Below are positions 1 to 6,806 of a DNA stretch of 6,806 bases, in pieces. The notes below the pieces were generated by a model. It was not told the DNA's origin. It saw nothing but the letters and a program-made list of their open reading frames with translations, and did no database searches. Each line of letters starts with the position of its first letter. Position 1 is the stretch's first letter. This stretch comes from Candidatus Culexmicrobium profundum (lineage in GTDB: Archaea > Thermoproteota > Methanomethylicia > Culexarchaeales > Culexmicrobiaceae): the NCBI GenBank assembly GCA_025061245.1, contig JANZKD010000093.1, positions 1 through 6,806 of the forward strand, given 5' to 3'. A program made the position numbers and the translations under genes.

Positions 1-192
1 CTGGTACTTAAAGCTATAGCTGAGGAAGCAAAATCATGGTCTTCAGTAAGAAGATATGTTGAGGAGAAAATGGGAGTAACTATACCAAAGTCTTCATTAA
101 CAAGAATAATAAAGAAACTAGAAAAACTAAGCATAGTTAAGAATTATGAATTTCTAGACCCAATATATGAGAGAGCCTCCAAGAAACTATAA
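1..192 (+). CDS. 3' end (63 codons + TAA) of an archaeal-ATPase-like protein with a winged-helix C-terminal tail; 5' partial at window edge
   Basis: Frame 1 is open from base 1 to TAA at 190-192: LVLKAIAEEAKSWSSVRRYVEEKMGVTIPKSSLTRIIKKLEKLSIVKNYEFLDPIYERASKKL. From memory this resembles the DUF234-like wHTH tail that follows PF01637 'archaeal ATPase' domains. It is not in the ORF track because it has no start in the window. Confidence 0.45.
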   Translation: MVLKAIAEEAKSWSSVRRYVEEKMGVTIPKSSLTRIIKKLEKLSIVKNYEFLDPIYERASKKL

Positions 193-231
193 GCATAGGC
201 TATTTCACCTTCAAATTCAATTAACAGTCAA

Positions 232-240
232 TTTAAAATA
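232..240 (+). promoter_or_regulatory. Putative archaeal TATA box for the 263-1135 gene (leaderless-type spacing)
   Basis: tttaaaata is centred about 27 nt upstream of ATG 263. No Shine-Dalgarno-like motif lies between them. Confidence 0.35.
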
Positions 241-262
241 ATTTTGAATTCAATTTTAATTT

Positions 263-1135
263 ATGAAGTGTCGGGTGGATGAATTTGTAATTGATGAATT
301 CCTCCAAGTGAAATTGAAGGTTTATACTATTGGTGATGGTAAGCCGACAATTCTAATAACAGGTGGAATACATGGAGATGAAACAACAGGAGTATATGCA
401 GCCTTTAAACTAAAAGAATACCTGTTAAATACAAGTTTAAAGGGGACTGTAAAGATCATTCCAATATCAAATCCAATAGCCTTTAGATGTAGAGTGAGAG
501 CCTCACCAATCGACAACACAGACCTAAATCGAGTATTCCCAGGAAACCCCAATGGAAGCCACACATCAAAAATAGCAGCAAAAATATGGGAAATAGCTCA
601 AACAGCAGACTACATCCTAGACCTACACTGCTGCGGTCAAACATGCCACCCATACATACTAGCAATCCACAAAGAATACCAACACATCAAAAATTACATC
701 CTAAAGATACCACTACCCTACGCAGTAGAGTCATCAGGTTTAAGAGGACAACTCTTCATAGAAGCCTCACACCTAGGAAAACCAGCAGCCATAATAGAAG
801 TAACAGGAGGACGAGGCATCTACAACCCCGAAATCGGTGAAATGCTATTCGAAGCAGTTAAAGGATTACTAACAAATCTAAACCTAATCGAAGGAGAAAA
901 AATTGATAGAAAACCAAAACTATACGACAAACTAAATCCAGTAACAATCAACCTAGAAGGATTCTTCAAACCCAAACTAAAACCAGGAACAGAAGTAAAA
1001 GCCGAAACCATCATAGGAGAAATCAATGGACAAGAAATCAAAGCAGGAATAGACGGACTCCTAATAAGAATAAGCCCACCAACCTATGTATTCAAAGGAG
1101 AATCAATAGCAAGCATAGCAGCAAAACTAGAGTAA
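263..1135 (+). CDS. Succinylglutamate desuccinylase/aspartoacylase (AstE/AspA) family zinc hydrolase, M14-carboxypeptidase-like
   Basis: 290-aa ORF. It has the HxxE zinc motif in ILITGGIHGDETTG, the family-typical DLNRVFPG, and a third His ligand in YILDLHCCG. Spacing of the three motifs fits the family. Confidence 0.85.
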   Translation: MKCRVDEFVIDEFLQVKLKVYTIGDGKPTILITGGIHGDETTGVYAAFKLKEYLLNTSLKGTVKIIPISNPIAFRCRVRASPIDNTDLNRVFPGNPNGSHTSKIAAKIWEIAQTADYILDLHCCGQTCHPYILAIHKEYQHIKNYILKIPLPYAVESSGLRGQLFIEASHLGKPAAIIEVTGGRGIYNPEIGEMLFEAVKGLLTNLNLIEGEKIDRKPKLYDKLNPVTINLEGFFKPKLKPGTEVKAETIIGEINGQEIKAGIDGLLIRISPPTYVFKGESIASIAAKLE

Positions 1136-1295
1136 ACTACAATAGAAGCTTGCTTGCTCAGTACTCACAACGTTATTTTCCCATCAACTAACATGAATGA
1201 TGACATTTAAAGAGTTGGTTAAAATAACATGTAGTAGATGAAGTTTAAGGTAAGATTTAAGTATGACTCAATTCTTACCATTTAAATGTGAAACC

Positions 1296-1556
1296 ATGTT
1301 TAAGACTGTTGTTTCCAAGAAAGGTCAAGTCGTCATACCAAAAAACATTAGAGAAATGCTAGGACTAACAACTGGAACAATCCTAAAAGTCTCAGTTGAA
1401 AAAAAGAAGATTATACTCGAACCAATAGAAGAACCACCAAAAGAAATCTTCATAGAAGCAGGATCAAAAATAACTGAAAAAATAATACGAGAAGCCAAAA
1501 CCCTAAGCGACAAAACCATCAAACTACTCAAAGACCTAGGTGTAGAAATTGAGTAA
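1296..1556 (+). CDS. vapB: AbrB/SpoVT-fold antitoxin (VapB-like)
   Basis: MFKTVVSKKGQVVIPKNIREMLGLTTGTILKVSVEKKKIILEP is a typical SpoVT/AbrB swapped-hairpin N-terminus. It sits immediately upstream of a PIN gene and overlaps it. The ORF track starts at ATG 1263, but ATG 1296 gives the usual N-terminus, so the start is uncertain. Confidence 0.8.
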   Translation: MFKTVVSKKGQVVIPKNIREMLGLTTGTILKVSVEKKKIILEPIEEPPKEIFIEAGSKITEKIIREAKTLSDKTIKLLKDLGVEIE

Positions 1557-2004
1557 AATAGTACTAGACACCAGCGTCATAATAGAATACATAGACAAAA
1601 AAGCAGACTACCACCAACAAGCCAAAACCATATTCAACACAATCACGCAAGGAAAACTAGAAGCCATAATACCCCACCCAACCCTAACCGAAACATACTA
1701 CGTCGCCAAAAAAATCTACAAAACCCTCAAAACAAAAAACCCACAACAAAAAGCCAAAAAACTAATAGAATGGCTATACCGCCACTCACAAATACAAATA
1801 AAAGGACTAAACCTACAACTCGCCCTAGAAGCAGGCAAAATAAAACTAAAATACAACATAGCCCTAACCGACTGCTACGTAATCGCATCAACAAAAATCT
1901 ACAACGCAAAAGCAATATTCAAAAAACGAGAAAAAGAACTACAAAACAAAATAACAAACATACAAAAAGAATACCCAATAATATTCCTAGAAGACTACGC
2001 ATAA
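1549..2004 (+). CDS. vapC: PIN-domain ribonuclease toxin (VapC-like)
   Basis: Starts MSKIVLDTSVIIEY (PIN Asp at residue 7), with E48 (TLTETYY) and D108 (IALTDCYVIA). The TTG start at 1549 overlaps the vapB stop (1554-1556) by 8 nt. The fourth acidic residue (usual T-x-D-x-D-F region) is not evident in AKAIFKKREKEL. Confidence 0.8.
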   Translation: MSKIVLDTSVIIEYIDKKADYHQQAKTIFNTITQGKLEAIIPHPTLTETYYVAKKIYKTLKTKNPQQKAKKLIEWLYRHSQIQIKGLNLQLALEAGKIKLKYNIALTDCYVIASTKIYNAKAIFKKREKELQNKITNIQKEYPIIFLEDYA

Positions 2005-2287
2005 ACTAACTATAAATTAAACTAACTCTATTCAAATTTTCTTAATCTATCTTTCAATATTGACGTAAACAATGATTCCTTAGCTAAAGTTAAAAATTAG
2101 AAAATTAATCCATCGTAGTTCAAGTATTTTTGATGTTTAGGCATAATGTAATAAAGTTAAAGGAAACATAACTTTACTTTAGACTTATATTGTCTGAAAG
2201 AAATACTTTTAAGGTTTCTACTTATAGCTTTGTTCAGAGTTAAGATATATTGCTATCCTAATCTAATGCGATTTCCTGAAGAGGTTG

Positions 2288-2992
2288 ATGGAAGTCGTGT
2301 TGGAGACTGATTATGATGTCTTTGAAAAGCAACTTAGTAATAGTGCGTGGGAAGATAAAATTAGGATTTGTATTCGCGGTATTTTTAATAATGTCTTCTT
2401 TAGAGGAGCAAAATTTATTAGTGATCTGAACATGGAGACGTTAAGAGAAAGATTTCCAGAAGTCTATGAAACTGTTAAGGACAATAATGTTAGGAGAGCA
2501 TTGATAATTTCTGAAATGTTTAAGGCTACTATTGAAACCACAATTCTGCGAAAACTTGGTGTCGAAGAGTTAGAAATAGAAATCGACGGTACGCATCCAA
2601 GTACTGGATTTCATGGATGGAATTTTCTAACATTAATCCGTCAACGAGATTTCACTCAAGCAGAGAATCTTTATGGTGGAAAAGATGCTGTAAAAATATT
2701 TTTTAAGAGTATTTTCTTTATATCAAAGGAATTATACAGTGTGCTGAATTCACCGGTTTTGAGAGATGTTTGGAGAGCAAGAAGTGGGCTAGAATTTAAA
2801 CGTGATAAACTTAGAGAAATTATATTTTCTGAGTTGCAGGATATTGCACAGAATATTCCTAATGAAGCTAAATGTTTCACAGATCTGAAAAAAGCAGTTA
2901 ATACACTGGTTTATTTCCTATACTATTGGTATGTTTCTGTTGGAAAGAAAGTTAAAAGAAAATTAGAAAGACTGTTGGATATCAAACTGTAA
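2288..2992 (+). CDS. Hypothetical protein (234 aa from ATG 2288), predicted mostly helical, no family recognised
   Basis: Long ORF with ordinary A/T-ending codon usage. A GAGGT Shine-Dalgarno-like motif at 2281-2285 lies just upstream of ATG 2288; the track starts one codon earlier at TTG 2285. I could identify no motif (no P-loop, no Rx4-6H HEPN motif, no metal-binding Cys/His cluster). Confidence 0.6.
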   Translation: MEVVLETDYDVFEKQLSNSAWEDKIRICIRGIFNNVFFRGAKFISDLNMETLRERFPEVYETVKDNNVRRALIISEMFKATIETTILRKLGVEELEIEIDGTHPSTGFHGWNFLTLIRQRDFTQAENLYGGKDAVKIFFKSIFFISKELYSVLNSPVLRDVWRARSGLEFKRDKLREIIFSELQDIAQNIPNEAKCFTDLKKAVNTLVYFLYYWYVSVGKKVKRKLERLLDIKL

Positions 2993-3111
2993 AGAACAAA
3001 GCAATAAAGCTAATATTACTAAGAAGTTAAGATAAAATATAAAATTAAATCCCTTAAGTACATAATTATTATATTTTAACGGTCCACTTAATATTAGATA
3101 ACGATTGGGAC

Positions 3112-3129
3112 GAAAGCTGCACAGCTTTC
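3112..3129. repeat. Perfect 8-bp palindromic hairpin gaaagctg-ca-cagctttc
   Basis: Read directly from the sequence. GC-richer than the surrounding AT-rich spacer, between the orphan gene and the tRNA promoter. Function unknown. Confidence 0.5.
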
Positions 3130-3170
3130 CGAATAATTAGTTGAATTAAATTTATAACTGTAAATGGTGA

Positions 3171-3180
3171 ATTTATTTTT
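3171..3180 (+). promoter_or_regulatory. Putative TATA box of the tRNA-His gene
   Basis: atttattttt is centred about 25 nt upstream of G(-1) at 3200. Confidence 0.35.
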
Positions 3181-3199
3181 CGAAGTTGTGGCCCGGAAT

Positions 3200-3316
3200 G
3201 GCCCGGATTGGGTCTCAAACCCTGCACGGAGAGCTCAGTCTGGTTAGAGCGCCAGCCTGTGGAGTCGATGTTTCGCAGAGAGCTGGTGGTCGCGGGTTCA
3301 AATCCCGCTCCGGGCC
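3200..3316 (+). tRNA. tRNA-His (anticodon GTG) with a canonical 37/38 intron (about 3263-3280) and a probable second, non-canonical about 23-nt intron (about 3209-3231) between the acceptor 5' arm and the D-stem
   Basis: Hand fold: G-1 3200; acceptor gcccgga 3201-3207 pairs with tccgggc 3309-3315; U8 3208. D-arm is gctc/agtctggtta/gagc (3233-3250). Anticodon stem is ccagc 3252-3256 / gctgg 3282-3286. The loop is c-t-GTG-g, then the intron, then a. A 4-bp helix (3257-3260 with 3275-3278) is flanked by 3-nt bulges gga and aga, which is bulge-helix-bulge-like. Variable loop is tggtc. T-arm is gcggg/ttcaaat/cccgc (3292-3308). Discriminator C73 is at 3316, and G-1:C73 is the tRNA-His identity pair. 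CCA is not encoded. An alternative contiguous 5' end at 3224 is discussed in findings. Confidence 0.8.
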
Positions 3317-3319
3317 TCC

Positions 3320-3560
3320 ATTATTCATCCTATTTTAGACTACCTTATCATTGAGCTGCAATAGCTTTGAAGCTTTGAGATTTGGTCGCTTATTTTCTCG
3401 ACTGAGTGCTTAATGTTCCCGACCACAGGCCTGGATTTGGAGTCTGGATGACTCCTTCTCCTTCATTGAGGCTATTGCCTCTTCCAGAGCTCTCGGGGGA
3501 ATCCAGGCTCCCCGCATCTGAAGGTTTAATGCTGCTATTACGTCTCTGTCTATTGTGAAG
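3320..3560 (-). ncRNA. Putative TnpB omega/reRNA region (3' end of tnpB plus right end of the element); boundaries not determined
   Basis: In characterised TnpB systems the guide RNA scaffold overlaps the tnpB 3' end and the right end of the element. Here 3410-3545 is locally GC-richer and rich in hairpins, for example ggagtc-tggat-gactcc at 3439-3455. It also escapes the strand bias of the rest of the gene. Positional inference only. Confidence 0.25.
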
Positions 3561-4748
3561 TTGCATTTGGGGGCATTTTACTTTTCTTTCTTTTAGTTCT
3601 ATGAGTTTGTTTTGACATTTTGGACATGTTTTTGATGTGTTTTTTGGGTCAACGTATTTTACTGGTAGTCCGTGCCATTTTAGCTTGTATTCTAGCATTT
3701 TTTGTATTTTTCTTGCATCCCATTTTGATAGTTTTCTATTCATTGACTTTGACTTGTTTAGTATGTGTCTTTTTATGTCTTTTAGGTCTTCTAGTATTGC
3801 TCCGTAGCCTTTTTGGACTAGTTCTCTTACTATTTTTGTTGTTAGTTTGTGTATGAAGTCGTTTGTTCTGTTTAGTTCTCTTTTTGAGTATTTTTGTAGT
3901 AGTTTCCTTGCTGTTTTTGGTTTTTTCTTGGCTAGTCTTTGTATTCTTTGTCTTTTGATTTCGTAGACTCTGTGTATGTGGTAGAGTGGTTTTAGGTCGT
4001 AGCGTTTTATTTCTCCGTTTATGTAGGCGGTTATGTTTGTTAGGTTTATGTCGAAGCTTGCCCATCCTTTTGGCTTTTTTATTGTTACTTTTTTCTTTAG
4101 TGTTAGTATTAGTTTGTTTTCTATTAGGAGTAGTCCTCCTATTTTGTCGAAGTCTTTTGGTATCCATGGATACTTGTTTAAGTCAATTATTATACAGCGC
4201 TTATAGGGTTCGATACTTATTCTGAGAATGCCATCTTTATAGCTGAATAATGACATTTTAATATATACGACTTTTCTTCTCACTTTCGGCTTGTTCTTGA
4301 ATACTCCTCGATTGTAATTTGAAATCCATGATCTCACTATGCTATAGGCCATGTCCATAGCTGAGTCAACATAGTTTTTAGTGAACTTCCAATTCTTCAA
4401 TAGTTCTTTTCTCAATTGCTTCTTGAACTCATTGGTTATAACTAGTTTTGCTTTTCTCTTTTCTGTGTATTGTATTTGTTTTAGTATTGCTTGTAGTGCT
4501 TTGCATTCTATTTGGTGGTAGGCTTCTATGAGGTCTTTGGGTGCTTTTATTGGTATGCTTCTTGCTTTGCATACTTCTATTGTTTTTTCTTGTCCAGTCA
4601 AGTTTGTTTGGGGTGAGCTCTTTTTCCCCAAACTTTCCTCCTTGTTCTCTAGTTCTCTTTTTCTCTTTTTTCTGCCCTCGTGTGAGGGCTTTTTTCTGTT
4701 TTCCGTCTGCCCAACTCCTTCGCATCTCTGCTTCATGGGTTTCTGCAT
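3390..4748 (-). CDS. tnpB: TnpB (IS200/IS605 OrfB, RuvC-like RNA-guided nuclease), frameshifted near the C-terminus; true start probably downstream of the annotated ATG
   Basis: RuvC-I Asp is in GWASFDINLTN and RuvC-II Glu in GAILEDLKDIK. The first zinc-ribbon half is NTSKTCPKC. At the C5 run (minus strand, 3569-3573) the listed frame reads KCPQMQLHNRQRR. With one C fewer it reads KCPKCNFTIDRDVIAALNLQMRGAW..., giving the second CxxC plus the DRD RuvC-III motif, with a stop at 3410-3412. The first 49 codons (MQKPMKQRCEGVGQ..RKKRKRELENKEE) look non-coding and structured. An in-frame TTG at 4601 is a candidate start. Confidence 0.85.
   Translation of the reverse strand: MQKPMKQRCEGVGQTENRKKPSHEGRKKRKRELENKEESLGKKSSPQTNLTGQEKTIEVCKARSIPIKAPKDLIEAYHQIECKALQAILKQIQYTEKRKAKLVITNEFKKQLRKELLKNWKFTKNYVDSAMDMAYSIVRSWISNYNRGVFKNKPKVRRKVVYIKMSLFSYKDGILRISIEPYKRCIIIDLNKYPWIPKDFDKIGGLLLIENKLILTLKKKVTIKKPKGWASFDINLTNITAYINGEIKRYDLKPLYHIHRVYEIKRQRIQRLAKKKPKTARKLLQKYSKRELNRTNDFIHKLTTKIVRELVQKGYGAILEDLKDIKRHILNKSKSMNRKLSKWDARKIQKMLEYKLKWHGLPVKYVDPKNTSKTCPKCQNKLIELKERKVKCPQMQLHNRQRRNSSIKPSDAGSLDSPESSGRGNSLNEGEGVIQTPNPGLWSGTLSTQSRK
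4606..4633. repeat. Perfect 8-bp hairpin gtttgggg / ccccaaac with a 12-nt loop
   Basis: Read directly from the sequence. It lies just upstream (minus-strand sense) of the candidate TTG start at 4601. Confidence 0.6.
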
Positions 4749-4772
4749 GTGATTGCGGAGTTGGGCAGACGG
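4703..4772. repeat. Perfect 16-bp inverted repeat (ccgtctgcccaactcc 4703-4718 / ggagttgggcagacgg 4757-4772) with a 38-nt spacer
   Basis: Read directly from the sequence. The spacer contains both in-frame ATGs (4748, 4736) of the listed tnpB ORF. Confidence 0.8.
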
Positions 4773-4835
4773 GTAAAAAGGTGGGTGGGGTTTAGGTTTG
4801 CTGTGGGGCTCGTTTGTGATGTTTCTTGGTGGGCG

Positions 4836-4859
4836 GAGTTAGGCATTTACGCCTAACTC
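4836..4859. repeat. Perfect 9-bp hairpin gagttaggc / gcctaactc with a 6-nt loop; candidate subterminal (left-end) IS hairpin
   Basis: Read directly from the sequence. IS200/IS605 ends carry subterminal hairpins. The assignment to the IS end is positional inference. Confidence 0.5.
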
Positions 4860-4922
4860 TTTCACCTCGCACTGAACATTGTATGTTTTATCTTGGCTTA
4901 TGCATGTCTTCATCCCATTTGG

Positions 4923-4948
4923 AGGGTTGGACTTCCTGCAGCAACCCT
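4923..4948. repeat. Perfect 7-bp hairpin agggttg / caaccct with a 12-nt loop, directly after the ATPase-fragment stop (minus-strand sense)
   Basis: Read directly from the sequence. It could be a 3'-end structure of the ATPase transcript or part of the IS end. Confidence 0.45.
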
Positions 4949-4949
4949 T

Positions 4950-6143
4950 TTATGGATTGCTGCATTCATTTTGGAGGGTGTGGAGAATTCTCCAGGCTAG
5001 GCTTGTTAGGTTGTATCCGTATTTTGTCCATTTTGCTAGGCTGTGTTTTTGTAGTGTTTTCCATTGGGTTGGTGTGGCTTGGTTTAATGCTGCGTTTATT
5101 AGGAAGCTTTTTAGTTTTATGTAAGCTGGTTCGTTTGGCTTTACTTTTCCCATTTTTCTTATTGTTTTTGGTATGTCTATGAGTTGTAGTAGTTGGCTTT
5201 CTGTTGTGGCTGTTTTATTGGTTATGTTTATGGTTTTTATTGTTGGCTGGTAGTATTCTTGAGTTGGTTTTGTTGTTGGTTCTAGTTTACGTGTTATTTG
5301 CTGTATTTCTTGGTGGGTTATTGTGATTTTCTGTTTTTTCTTGGGTTGATGGTGTTTGGCTGGTTTTCCTTTGGTTGATGTTGCGTTTTTGATTTTTGGT
5401 GTGATTGTGACCTGGATTAGTGTTGGTTTTATTTCTGGTGTTTTGATTATGCATTGTCCTGTTTTTAGGTTTGCTATTATTCTTTTTACTTGGTCTATTT
5501 CGTGTTTGGTGAAGGCTAGGTCTCTTGCTAGTTTTTCTCTTGTTTGGTCGTCTTCTATTCTCATTATTATTTTTAGGGTTGACATGGCCATTATTTCGTG
5601 TTGGAGTGAGGTGGGGGTTATGGCTATTATTCCTATTCCATGTTTTCTTGCTTCTTTGTAGAGTTTTGCTAGTATGTTTTCTGGTGGGTGTAGGTGTCCT
5701 GCTTGTATTGTTACTTTTTCTTTTGGTGCTATTGTGTGGGCTTCATCAATTATTACTATTAGGTTTAATTTTTGGCTGGTGCTTTGAGCATAATTGTAGA
5801 TTGCTGCGAGTAGTATGTGTGTTGCTAGGATTTTTGCTGTTTCTGTTGGTAGAGTTGATAGGTTAATTATATTTACTCCTTTTATTGGTAGTTTGGGTTT
5901 TCCTTGACAGTCTAGTGGTGTGTTTATTATTGGTTCTATTCTTCTTCTTAGTGCGTCGCATGCATCTCTATGTTCACGTTTTTTGAGTTGGCTTCTTAGT
6001 TTTTCGAGTAGTTTGTAGAGTTTTGTGAAAGTTAGTTTTTCACTGCATTGTATTATGGTTGATAGTAGGTGGTATACTAGTGGTGTTGGTGTTGATTTTG
6101 AGACTAGTGATATTTTTGCTGGTATTGCTATTGCTTTTTCAGC
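4950..6143 (-). pseudogene. HerA/DUF87 (AAA_10-like) ATPase fragment: Walker B and C-terminal core present, N-terminal domain and an intact Walker A absent, no start codon for the first 184 codons
   Basis: My translation of the minus strand shows the frame of ORF 4950-5591 stays open up to a TGA at 6144-6146 (397 codons). It includes ..LNLIVIIDEAHTIAP.. (Walker B), ..EARKHGIGIIAITPTS.., and IIMRIEDDQTREKL...LKTGQCIIKTPEIKPTLIQVTI, which resembles the HerA-like C-terminal core. The first ATG is at 5591. Upstream of 6143 there is no ATPase-like sequence and no GxxxxGK[ST]; only a weak SKST lies near the frame start. Confidence 0.6.
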
Positions 6144-6228
6144 TCATGGAACTGCAGTTATAGTTGAGAAGTTGGATGAGTGATATCTAATTTCTTGATT
6201 TAGCTTTATAGTTTGTTTGGACTATAAA

Positions 6229-6237
6229 TTTATATTT
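6229..6237 (+). promoter_or_regulatory. Putative TATA box for the 6261 membrane-protein gene
   Basis: tttatattt is centred 28 nt upstream of ATG 6261. Confidence 0.3.
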
Positions 6238-6260
6238 ACGGCCATAAATATAGTATTGAG

Positions 6261-6806
6261 ATGAGTCAAGGGCGAGAGGCTAGAGATTTAATTGAAATTT
6301 TAGATGGCTTTATGCATTTTGTGTTTGGTGAGCTTTGGGTTAGAGAGAATGTTAAGTATTATTTGTTTTTATTGTTGCTTCTCCTTGTTTCTCCACTTTA
6401 CATTGTTTCTTCTGAGGGTTTCTGGTATTTTACTTATTCATGGGGTATTGTTACTATTTCGCCTTCTGGAAGTGTTGGTTTTGAACTTATTTATTATAGG
6501 CTTATGCATCTTTTTGGAGTTCCAGTGAGTTACTATTATTTTTATGATCCCTCTTTTTTAATGCATTTTTTCGTTCTTAATTTGCTTGTGCTTTTATGTT
6601 TTCTAGGTCTGGTTTATGAATGGTTTTTTGGTGGTGGATTTGCTTCTCAGGGTTTGAGGATGCTTTGTTTGGTGGTTTCCAGTGATCTTTTCATTAAAAT
6701 TTTTCTAATTGTTTCTACAGGTTTTTTGATTTTGGGTTTTTATCCTCTTGTTTTCTATGCTGTATATAGACTTTTTAGGTTGTTTATTAGGTATTTTAAA
6801 TTTGAT
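6261..6806 (+). CDS. Multi-pass membrane protein, 5' part (182 codons, continues beyond the window)
   Basis: This frame has no stop from ATG 6261 to the window end. I checked every taa/tag/tga in 6301-6806 and none falls in this frame. Translation: MSQGREARDLIEILDGFMHFVFGELWVRENVKYYLFLLLLLLVSPLYIVSSEGFWYFTYSWGIVTISPSGSVGFELIYYRLMHLFGVPVSYYYFYDPSFLMHFFVLNLLVLLCFLGLVYEWFFGGGFASQGLRMLCLVVSSDLFIKIFLIVSTGFLILGFYPLVFYAVYRLFRLFIRYFKFD. It shows several hydrophobic spans. All three minus-strand frames are full of stops here. It is absent from the track because it lacks a stop in the window. Confidence 0.6.
   Translation, partial: MSQGREARDLIEILDGFMHFVFGELWVRENVKYYLFLLLLLLVSPLYIVSSEGFWYFTYSWGIVTISPSGSVGFELIYYRLMHLFGVPVSYYYFYDPSFLMHFFVLNLLVLLCFLGLVYEWFFGGGFASQGLRMLCLVVSSDLFIKIFLIVSTGFLILGFYPLVFYAVYRLFRLFIRYFKFD

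Follow-up and report, generated by a model that had tools for sequence, protein, structure and literature searches.

Strand asymmetry of base composition is normally weak and genome-scale. In vertebrate mitochondrial DNA (mtDNA), the heavy and light strands are nearly saturated for G/T versus A/C at synonymous sites; proteins are kept, amino acids drift, and codon usage is mirrored between the strands. In replication skew of the Borrelia burgdorferi type, which is moderate, the strand also sets whether codons end in G/T or A/C, over whole replichores with one switch at the origin and at the terminus. Asymmetries linked to transcription or R-loops are seen in bacterial coding-strand C>T change, GC-skewed CpG-island promoters and AID-targeted immunoglobulin switch regions. 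Strand-coordinated hypermutation (APOBEC/AID kataegis, retroviral G>A change and fungal repeat-induced point mutation (RIP)) acts with sharp edges on one strand and on one chemical class, in single events that touch all codon positions and are usually inactivating. Here we describe a 6,806-bp stretch of DNA (hereafter the window), an entire contig of the metagenome-assembled genome (MAG) 'archaeon GB-1867-035', type material of Candidatus Culexmicrobium profundum, in which strand asymmetry is extreme, local and mosaic and lies in a cellular chromosome: blocks whose plus strand is A/C-rich or G/T-rich are separated by neutral DNA. We class these blocks as an extreme, mosaic form of mutational strand asymmetry; literature searches found no published description of such kilobase strand-composition blocks.

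The blocks resemble vertebrate mtDNA in their near-saturated silent sites, retained proteins, amino-acid drift and mirror-image codon usage. Unlike mtDNA, they sit in a cellular archaeal chromosome as patches of 0.2–3 kb with alternating polarity and neutral DNA between them, T>C-type change is no less complete than G>A-type change, and the blocks of the window have no gradient. The strand sets the codon ending as in Borrelia, but the domains are kilobase-sized and near-saturated, with mostly neutral flanks. With the transcription and R-loop systems the blocks share a kilobase scale, frequent starts at gene boundaries or in intergenic DNA and arbitrary ends; the G/T-rich strand would correspond to the RNA-like strand, and base loss from a displaced strand would give the observed polarity. 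Compared with known prokaryotic transcription skews, however, the magnitude is far larger, it does not scale with expected expression, and half of the tracts would need antisense transcripts. The sharp edges, single chemical class and single strand recall kataegis and RIP. Hypermutation of the APOBEC/AID or RIP kind was nevertheless rejected, as it hits all codon positions and usually inactivates genes, whereas the changes here are codon-phased and the open reading frames (ORFs) and Pfam domains are intact. Skew is also present in alleles that differ by 25–40%, which points to long-term or repeated pressure under selection rather than to a single hypermutation event.

Candidatus C. profundum belongs to the class Culexarchaeia, within the TACK archaea, and comes from Guaymas Basin sediment; its bin GB-1867-035 comprises 2.04 Mb in 296 contigs at 35% GC, its predicted optimal growth temperature is ~89 °C, and reverse gyrase is encoded in every Culexarchaeia MAG (PMC9723716). 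Skew and codon usage are unmentioned in that paper (PMC9723716). We compared the window with homologous loci from independent assemblies: L060 (ENA, MEGAHIT-style contig; 99.7% identical and reaching 8.4 kb further left), L009 (ENA, SPAdes-style contig; 99.7% identical over vapBC and 96% over the region from tnpB to the membrane gene, with a GmrSD gene instead of the orphan gene), L062 and L063 (JGI and ENA; 92% identical) and L018 (Logan; 95% identical over window positions 1–1136). L008 is an 84%-identical relative of the window and L001 served as outgroup in the deacylase tree. A more distant archaeon is represented by L019 (genome GCA_964462875.1, from a metagenome in the same ENA accession series as L060), and L021 comes from the same sample as L019.

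Skew was computed as keto skew, (G+T-A-C)/N, in 100-bp windows, with G/T termed keto and A/C amino, and block limits were assigned with a three-state hidden Markov model (HMM). We refer to codons ending in A or C as the A/C dialect, and to those ending in G or T as the G/T dialect. The stretch at 1–500 is neutral. Block 1 (501–1142; plus strand A/C-rich, keto skew -0.36) has the same edges in L060 and L018, and its right edge lies 7 bp past the stop codon of a deacylase gene. A neutral island (1143–1333; +0.02), identical in L009 and L060, covers the vapB upstream region and vapB codons 1–13 and is followed by Block 2 (1334–2026; plus strand A/C-rich, -0.48). Polarity switches across a neutral centre (2027–3522; +0.06), which contains an orphan gene, a transfer RNA (tRNA) gene and the GC-rich 3' end of tnpB. 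Beyond it, Block 3 (3523–4161; plus strand G/T-rich, +0.46) recurs in L009, L062 and L063 and is separated by a 283-bp neutral island inside tnpB (4162–4444), found in all four strains, from Block 4 (4445–6806; plus strand G/T-rich, +0.44, with a peak of +0.72 at 5301–5400). In L009, Block 4 runs ~650 bp past the point at which the window contig ends, reaching ~70 bp beyond the stop codon of the membrane gene. At 100-bp resolution the skew thus ranges from -0.30 to -0.66 over ~451–2000 and from +0.3 to +0.72 over ~3551–6806, and is ~0 elsewhere. These limits agree to within ~20–40 bp with those of a first-pass annotation made by eye from the letters, except that the gap it placed at 6140–6300 is only a dip in skew to ~+0.2 and does not split the block.

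The magnitude of the skew is far outside that of other sequences. In 300-bp windows the absolute skew is at least 0.33 in 50% of the window and reaches 0.67; in a control set of ~580 kb of other fetched loci, which included other hyperthermophilic archaea and the sister Culexmicrobium species, the largest value was 0.41 and virtually none reached 0.33. Third-position A+C is 0.97 in vapC, 0.90 in an ATPase gene fragment, 0.80 in the deacylase gene, 0.78 in vapB and 0.77 in tnpB, as against 0.62 in the ATPase 3' end at 1–192, 0.42 in the orphan gene and 0.19 in the membrane ORF. The comparison with mtDNA drawn in the first-pass annotation is borne out by these values. The bias is phased with the codon: in vapC, A+C is 0.65, 0.66 and 0.97 at positions 1, 2 and 3, with T at 0.01 and G at 0.02 of third positions. 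A recount returned exactly the earlier figures of 147 of 151 vapC codons ending in A or C (the exceptions being TTG, AGT, ACG and TGG), with all Leu as CTA or CTC bar the TTG start, all Lys as AAA, all Glu as GAA and all Tyr as TAC, and of 138 G/T-ending codons among the last 166 of the membrane ORF. Third codon positions are the purest, and some intergenic stretches (4851–4950 and 6140–6260) are less pure. Within the blocks, silent sites are near saturation and less constrained residues drift to K/T/P/Q/N/I in the A/C dialect or to V/F/G/L/R/S in the G/T dialect, while catalytic motifs are retained. Palindromic 4-mers occur at 22–36 per kb in blocks versus 73–86 per kb in neutral DNA.

Five or more independent, strain-divergent assemblies (L060, L009, L062, L063 and L018) share these blocks and edges, and every block edge is spanned by at least two of them. 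An artefact, either a chimeric assembly or deaminated environmental DNA assembled strand by strand, had to be considered since the samples are hot hydrothermal sediments in which DNA damage is expected. The blocks recur, however, across samples and assemblers with strain-level differences; chemical conversion cannot give the codon phase seen in vapC (97% at the third position against ~65% at the first and second); and the ORFs are intact and encode proteins that keep significant Pfam matches. The artefact reading is effectively refuted. Block edges seen in the extended flanks, the agreement of independent assemblies and the polarized excess of changes described below all leave the original proposal of strand-specific blocks standing.

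Block polarity is a property of the DNA strand and not of gene orientation. In Block 4, the minus-strand ATPase fragment and tnpB are in the A/C dialect and the plus-strand membrane gene is in the G/T dialect. In a block of more than 4 kb in L021, the minus-strand genes rpoH (third-position A+C 0.09), hyp212, hyp65 and hyp59 use the G/T dialect and the plus-strand gene hyp164 and an ATPase fragment (0.92) the A/C dialect, and the intergenic DNA is skewed equally. In L019, hyp178 (0.07) is followed by convergent genes at 0.70 (hyp353 and hyp138). Third-position G+T is 0.91–0.93 in rpoH and hyp178, and third positions of the G/T-rich strand are alike whether that strand is sense or antisense (T 0.53–0.62, G 0.36–0.38). 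The first-pass annotation had assigned the bias to the strand from the window; the conservation of the membrane gene and the mixed gene orientations within the blocks of related genomes confirm this. The ATPase provides a direct illustration, as the fragment in the window and the L019 protein P0227 are one protein in opposite dialects with 38% amino-acid identity: across 385 aligned codons the third position is amino in the window and keto in L019 at 272, and the reverse at 6. The commonest replacements, window versus P0227, are I>V (24) and K>R (16).

The blocks are not spread evenly over the chromosome. Neutral sequence makes up the first 5 kb of L060, and the genes for ribosomal proteins, EMG1, prefoldin, rpoA1 and most of rpoB are likewise neutral; third-position A+C is 0.39–0.57 in ribosomal-protein genes and most of rpoB and rpoA1, and accessory genes reach 0.05–0.97. 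At the deacylase locus the phenomenon is lineage-specific within the genus, because the sister Culexmicrobium species (GB-1867-097 type, deacylase 73% identical in amino acids) has no block in 20 kb around its orthologous deacylase gene and L008 has weak blocks only, elsewhere on its contig. A scan of GTDB representatives with TnpB did not recover the GB-1867-035 MAG and returned only distant, unskewed relatives, and a metagenome scan with the deacylase returned one further close locus, also unskewed. Blocks are also present in the second, more distant genome GCA_964462875.1 (L019). In L021, the skewed block enters a core operon (6698–7109), with 91% G/T at rpoH third positions and skew in rpoB codons 1–90.

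Recombination and mobile-element insertion shuffle the skewed domains between strains. A recombination breakpoint lies inside the membrane gene when L009 (reverse complement, 6393–9030) is compared with L018 (9837–12480): divergence is 25–40% upstream of the gene and over its first two-thirds, and identity is 99–100% over its last third and the next gene. As both of the diverged alleles are G/T-rich, the skew is either old or was imposed repeatedly. The 870-bp vapBC cassette is an insertion relative to L018, where it is absent.

The direction of change could be polarized in the deacylase gene using the tree ((window, L018), L008, L001). In codons 74 to the end, the branch leading to the window and L018 carries 28 keto>amino changes (23 transitions and 5 transversions; 14 synonymous and 14 non-synonymous) and 4 amino>keto changes. 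In codons 1–73, the same branch carries 1 keto>amino and 10 amino>keto changes; the two parts drift in opposite directions, which places a polarity switch inside the gene at about codon 73. On the A/C-rich strand the polarized changes are mainly T>C and G>A, the excess under purifying selection that the first-pass annotation had proposed. The third-position keto fraction fell from ~0.33–0.41 in relatives to 0.10, corresponding to keto>amino change ~ten-fold faster than the background per-site rate over the same time. If some 14% of the non-synonymous keto sites can vary, the 14–20 directional non-synonymous changes are about as many as expected; mutation pressure and purifying selection are thus sufficient. 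Comparison of the window with L018 gives a divergence of 6.5% for the skewed part of the deacylase gene and 3.2% for the unskewed part, and most of the recent non-synonymous differences run keto>amino. Relative-rate tests on the deacylase did not separate mutation from fixation bias, parsimony being biased by outgroup convergence and the few free non-synonymous sites being saturated.

At least one block is now relaxing. In the tnpB/ATPase block of four strains, third-position singletons comprise 19 keto>amino and 6 amino>keto changes, a per-site ratio of 3.1, and a ratio of 9.8 would be needed to keep the 91% purity of the block. The saturating pressure posited in the first-pass annotation therefore left its mark in near-saturated silent sites but no longer acts at full strength here (19:6). 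Singletons on the G/T-rich strand also included an apparent excess of T>G. Eight of the ten events come from L063 in DNA aligned to window positions 3530–4107, among them three at consecutive codon third positions (4101, 4104 and 4107). We did not rely on this excess as a class-preserving transversion signal, as a sequencing-chemistry error in L063 or a strain-specific event could explain it.

The ends of the tracts are related to gene boundaries in a directional manner. We oriented 20 non-redundant tracts by their own G/T-rich strand. A gene boundary no more than 80 bp away, or intergenic DNA, marks the 5' end of 14 of the 20 tracts, where the background is 0.315 (p=4.6e-4), and the 3' end of 7 of the 20 (p=0.45); 5' and 3' ends compared by Fisher's test give p=0.056. 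The earlier view that the bias follows the strand alone therefore stands for polarity, but gene boundaries matter where tracts begin. Many sense G/T tracts start just upstream of a start codon (the L019 ATPase, hyp178, Pept_S51, the membrane gene, and rpoH into rpoB). About half of the tracts are antisense to annotated genes, and four such tracts start upstream of the next co-oriented gene (deacylase/vapB, acetyltransferase/amidohydrolase, hyp376/TldD and Hjc/DUF5678), in what are putative promoter regions. This arrangement suggests a process that starts in intergenic DNA and travels 5' to 3' along the future G/T-rich strand. Around the tRNA gene of the window, of L018 and of L019, the strand with its 5' end nearest the tRNA is G/T-rich. 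This rule accounts for the opposite dialects of the ATPase–tnpB module, which is directed away from the tRNA gene in L019 and faces it in the window.

Strand-specific mutation pressure combined with purifying selection probably shaped the blocks. The best explanation overall, to which we give a probability of about 0.5, is that they are inherited chromosomal domains in which one strand is recurrently single-stranded and loses A and C under purifying selection. The future G/T-rich strand would be repeatedly exposed at ~85–90 °C and would lose A and C, mainly by A>G and C>T. Deamination above all, or another type of damage confined to single-stranded DNA, would have this effect and is plausible at ~89 °C. 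Most simply, the exposed strand would be the non-template strand displaced by transcription or R-loops. We offer transcription or R-loops as the trigger only tentatively, and the chance that this part is right is the smaller one. Transcription is known to be associated with extra C>T and A>G changes in the non-transcribed strand, and R-loop-prone regions have G-rich non-template strands; the polarity of the tracts matches both. For about half of the tracts an antisense transcript would be required, perhaps from a promoter firing in both directions, and the R-loops could be formed by untranslated or antisense RNA. Gain of G in the RNA-like strand would stabilize R-loops and make the process self-reinforcing, which would account for the all-or-nothing character of the blocks. 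Ordinary G:C>T:A pressure may have added the within-class shift from G to T (and C to A) over time.

Several observations weigh against this explanation. Spontaneous adenine deamination is far slower than cytosine deamination, and yet A>G-type change has gone as far as C>T-type change, so either repair must differ, or an enzyme must act, or the polymerase must make G·T-type errors on a strand that is preferentially resynthesized. Highly transcribed genes (the ribosomal-protein genes, rpoA1, and rpoB past its first 90 codons) are unskewed; mutagenesis that scales with expression therefore fails, and the R-loop qualifier is required. The adjoining genes TrmB220 and HTH227, on the same strand with an 8-bp overlap, flip dialect from one to the next, and the skew of vapBC and of the ATPase fragment runs counter to transcription in their own sense. 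The G/T-rich strands are rich in terminator-like runs of five or more T, and such runs tend to cause termination by archaeal RNA polymerase. No consistent gradient runs along the blocks, those of the window having none; the skew decays from one edge in L019 (9840–12109 and 15381–17662) and in L021. Nor is there amino-acid acceleration, with deacylase branch lengths of 14 in the window lineage and 18 in L008 by three-point arithmetic on pairwise differences. Saturation of the few free sites can explain this, and a fixation bias is possible. Finally, singletons per site are no more frequent in the tnpB/ATPase block (0.068) than in neutral islands (0.082) among four strains, so the pressure in that block is episodic or past. 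The R-loop version of the explanation would be compatible with the neutral ribosomal-protein genes, the TrmB220/HTH227 flip, the skew of vapBC against its own sense, the T-runs and the lack of a consistent gradient. By contrast, a model of double-strand-break resection and deamination centred on the tRNA gene or tnpB was rejected because it predicts the opposite polarity; it fits the switch at deacylase codon ~73 and no other block.

The rivals that still stand are import from skewed mobile replicons and selection for strand purity; replication skew, translational selection, mutagenesis by a diversity-generating retroelement, single events of the RIP or kataegis type and artefact each lack defining features that were tested. 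Blocks could have arisen on single-stranded or asymmetrically replicating mobile replicons (rolling-circle or conjugative elements, or IS200/IS605 elements transposing as single-stranded DNA) and then been integrated by a tRNA gene or homologous recombination, with polarity recording the orientation of the donor. Many skewed genes are indeed of mobile genetic element (MGE) or defence types (vapBC, tnpB, the DUF87/HerA-like ATPase, methyltransferases and tRNA-adjacent genes), core genes are mostly neutral, the same truncated A/C-dialect ATPase fragment occurs in two contexts (the window and L021), and recombination between very divergent alleles is visible within the membrane gene. Against import, deacylase protein divergence to L001 is 0.27 in the skewed 3' two-thirds and 0.26 in the 5' third, without a foreign mark, skew extends to rpoH and to rpoB codons 1–90, and the resident flanks have the polarity of the inserted module in both contexts. 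The ATPase, moreover, has no relatives in the viral or plasmid collections searched. We regard import as unlikely. The classical polarity of replication skew, with diverging G/T-rich leading strands, is what would be seen if the neutral centre near the tRNA gene were an origin or origin-like site, the plus strand being A/C-rich to its left and G/T-rich to its right. The polarity rule holds in the window, in L018 and around the L019 tRNA gene, and the dialect of the ATPase–tnpB module follows its orientation relative to the tRNA. The domains, however, are 0.2–3 kb rather than replichore-sized and alternate in polarity every few kilobases, adjacent and core genes are neutral, the centre contained no origin recognition box (ORB)-like or origin-type repeats, and the rule fails at L018 13966–14489, beside another tRNA gene, and at L060 4954–5320. 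An origin-like centre is therefore very improbable.

Two further accounts invoke selection. Strand purity itself might be favoured in either polarity, by selection or biased fixation acting mainly at silent sites, if a duplex of A/C against G/T without palindromes or hairpins evades, for example, palindrome-cutting restriction enzymes or structure-dependent targeting. In favour of this account are both polarities in the same protein family, the purest sequence at third positions with some less pure intergenic stretches, and transversions that also run towards the dialect. The lack of amino-acid acceleration in the skewed lineage and the abundance of restriction, modification and other defence genes in the loci also fit. 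The drop in palindromic 4-mers (22–36 versus 73–86 per kb) points the same way but is an automatic result of composition. The selection coefficient per silent site would be minute, 97% is far beyond known restriction-site avoidance, the housekeeping rpoH and deacylase genes are hit while neighbouring accessory genes are spared, and purity gives no reason for opposed neighbours to share a polarity or for tracts to start at gene boundaries, making this account quite unlikely. Translational selection, with A/C-ending codons optimal and G/U-ending codons slow, would draw on the fact that archaeal C- and A-ending codons form Watson–Crick pairs with G34 and U34 tRNAs. The genes for ribosomal proteins and RNA polymerase, however, are neutral, some blocks begin or end within a gene, the bias extends to intergenic DNA and to the first position of Leu codons, and polarity tracks the strand across opposite gene orientations; we consider it as good as excluded.

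A more far-reaching form of strand-specific mutation is local strand-directed hypermutation, operating in Culexmicrobium and neighbouring hyperthermophilic archaea, launched from intergenic DNA and driving kilobase tracts close to strand purity with proteins preserved. This is speculative and, on present comparisons, unlikely to be correct. Such hypermutation would act mostly on the accessory DNA near tRNA genes that have MGE-type genes on either side, and could take the form of self-reinforcing R-loops or of strand displacement primed at nicks, with a deaminase or an error-prone polymerase coupled to it. If this were true, cellular chromosomes would have a previously unrecognized mode of mutation that might also serve diversification. 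A diversity-generating retroelement was rejected, because no template/variable repeat pair was found and both A and C have changed across several genes; a reverse-transcriptase domain was found neither among the window ORFs scanned nor in the precomputed Pfam tables of the loci.

If the blocks are mutational, some hyperthermophilic archaea would harbour kilobase domains in which one strand loses A and C at a ~ten-fold higher rate, which bears on the stability of hyperthermophile genomes, on archaeal R-loop and single-stranded DNA biology and on the rate at which accessory and defence genes evolve. The directional relation between tracts and gene boundaries and the relaxation of at least one block are new beyond the first-pass annotation. 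The blocks also distort routine analyses: codon-usage-based prediction of horizontal transfer, compositional binning and phylogenetics, in which opposite-dialect homologues are 38% identical over the aligned region with composition-driven I>V and K>R replacements. One protein in two mirror-image recodings offers, on the other hand, a natural test bed. Gene calling is distorted by spurious ORFs on the stop-poor G/T-rich strand, which are long because stop codons need A. The G/T-rich strands of all blocks carry many such ORFs of 74–126 amino acids antisense to real genes (in the window, for example, at 3620–3856, 4826–5182 and 5525–5866), and gene callers had annotated some of them in related contigs.

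The genes along the window are as follows. Positions 1–192 (plus strand) are the 3' end of a gene for an ATPase of the PF01637 type that carries an MCM-like winged helix (match to the Pfam MCM_C winged helix, E=1.8e-7). The full gene encodes 326–339 amino acids in L060 and L018. This ORF tail is neutral to weakly A/C-rich in composition, largely as first described, but its product is the C terminus of a PF01637-type ATPase and not MCM. The AstE/AspA-family deacylase gene (263–1135, plus strand; Pfam PF24827, E=1e-28) is neutral with slight G/T drift in codons 1–73 and in the A/C dialect in codons 74–290. Per 30 codons, its third-position A+C runs, in tenths, 3, 7, 6, 9, 9, 9, 9, 9, 10 and 9. 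Homology to L018 stops at 1136, one base past the deacylase stop codon (L018 position 9236), where the vapBC cassette begins (1137–2006, plus strand). The cassette contains vapB, encoding a MazE/AbrB antitoxin (1296–1556, plus strand; Pfam MazE, E=1.9e-11), and vapC, encoding a PIN toxin (1549–2004, plus strand; Pfam PIN, E=1.7e-17), and L009 homology stops at 2006, two bases past the vapC stop codon.

The interval between vapC and the tRNA gene (window 2007–3133, L009 8640–10630) is a variable slot. In the window it holds an orphan gene of 235 amino acids (2285–2992, plus strand), also present in L060 and L061, and in L009 it holds a GmrSD gene (type IV restriction), identified by GmrSD_N. 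In L009 and L019, the 3' end of the GmrSD gene faces a gene whose 3' part is strongly in the A/C dialect. The tRNA gene (3224–3316, plus strand) contains an intron-like insert, matches Rfam RF00005 at 52 bits and was missed by ARAGORN; orthologues are present in L009, L018 and L060, and MGE-type genes adjoin them in other strains. An inverted partial copy of the tRNA 3' end lies upstream (3189–3222), with arms at 3200–3222 and 3294–3316 that are 74% complementary, and a tandem TGGCCCGGAA/TGGCCCGGAT lies just upstream of the tRNA gene. Together these could be the remnant of an integration site; a repeat search for att-type direct repeats bounding an integrated element returned none that was informative.

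The tnpB gene (3390–4748, minus strand) encodes an IS200/IS605-type RNA-guided nuclease (Pfam OrfB_IS605 and Cas12f1-like_TNB) and is in the A/C dialect except at 3390–3522 and 4162–4444. In the window it is frameshifted by an extra G at 3569 relative to L009, such that the zinc finger and RuvC C terminus are replaced by unrelated sequence; it is intact in L009 (7067–8365) and split into three ORFs in L063. Upstream of tnpB, a perfect 16-bp hairpin with a 38-nucleotide loop (4703–4772) forms an inverted repeat that resembles an IS200/IS605 end structure, and it drew a spurious weak microRNA-like Rfam match. The DUF87/HerA-like ATPase (4953–6140, minus strand) is represented by its C-terminal half in the A/C dialect, without a start codon and without the half that contains Walker A. 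It aligns to residues 400–780 of the 795-amino-acid P0227 and has weak matches to CedD/HerA/CedB and to HerA in the PDB. Since the fragment is frameshifted in L009, it is decaying.

The first half of the membrane-protein gene (6261–6806, plus strand) is in the G/T dialect (third-position G+T 0.81) and lies on the strand opposite to the ATPase fragment and tnpB. We rejected its being a chance ORF antisense to the lost N-terminal half of the ATPase, because all three minus-strand frames are closed; its conservation in L018, where no ATPase or tnpB is called beside it, likewise rules this out. The full gene encodes 361 amino acids in L009, and a 365-amino-acid orthologue in L018 is 77% identical. 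Runs of five or more T occur 10 times in the 546 nucleotides of its sense strand and are absent from the sense strands of the A/C-dialect genes, and many such runs occur likewise in other G/T-dialect genes (L019 10001–12388 and L021 6822–7109).

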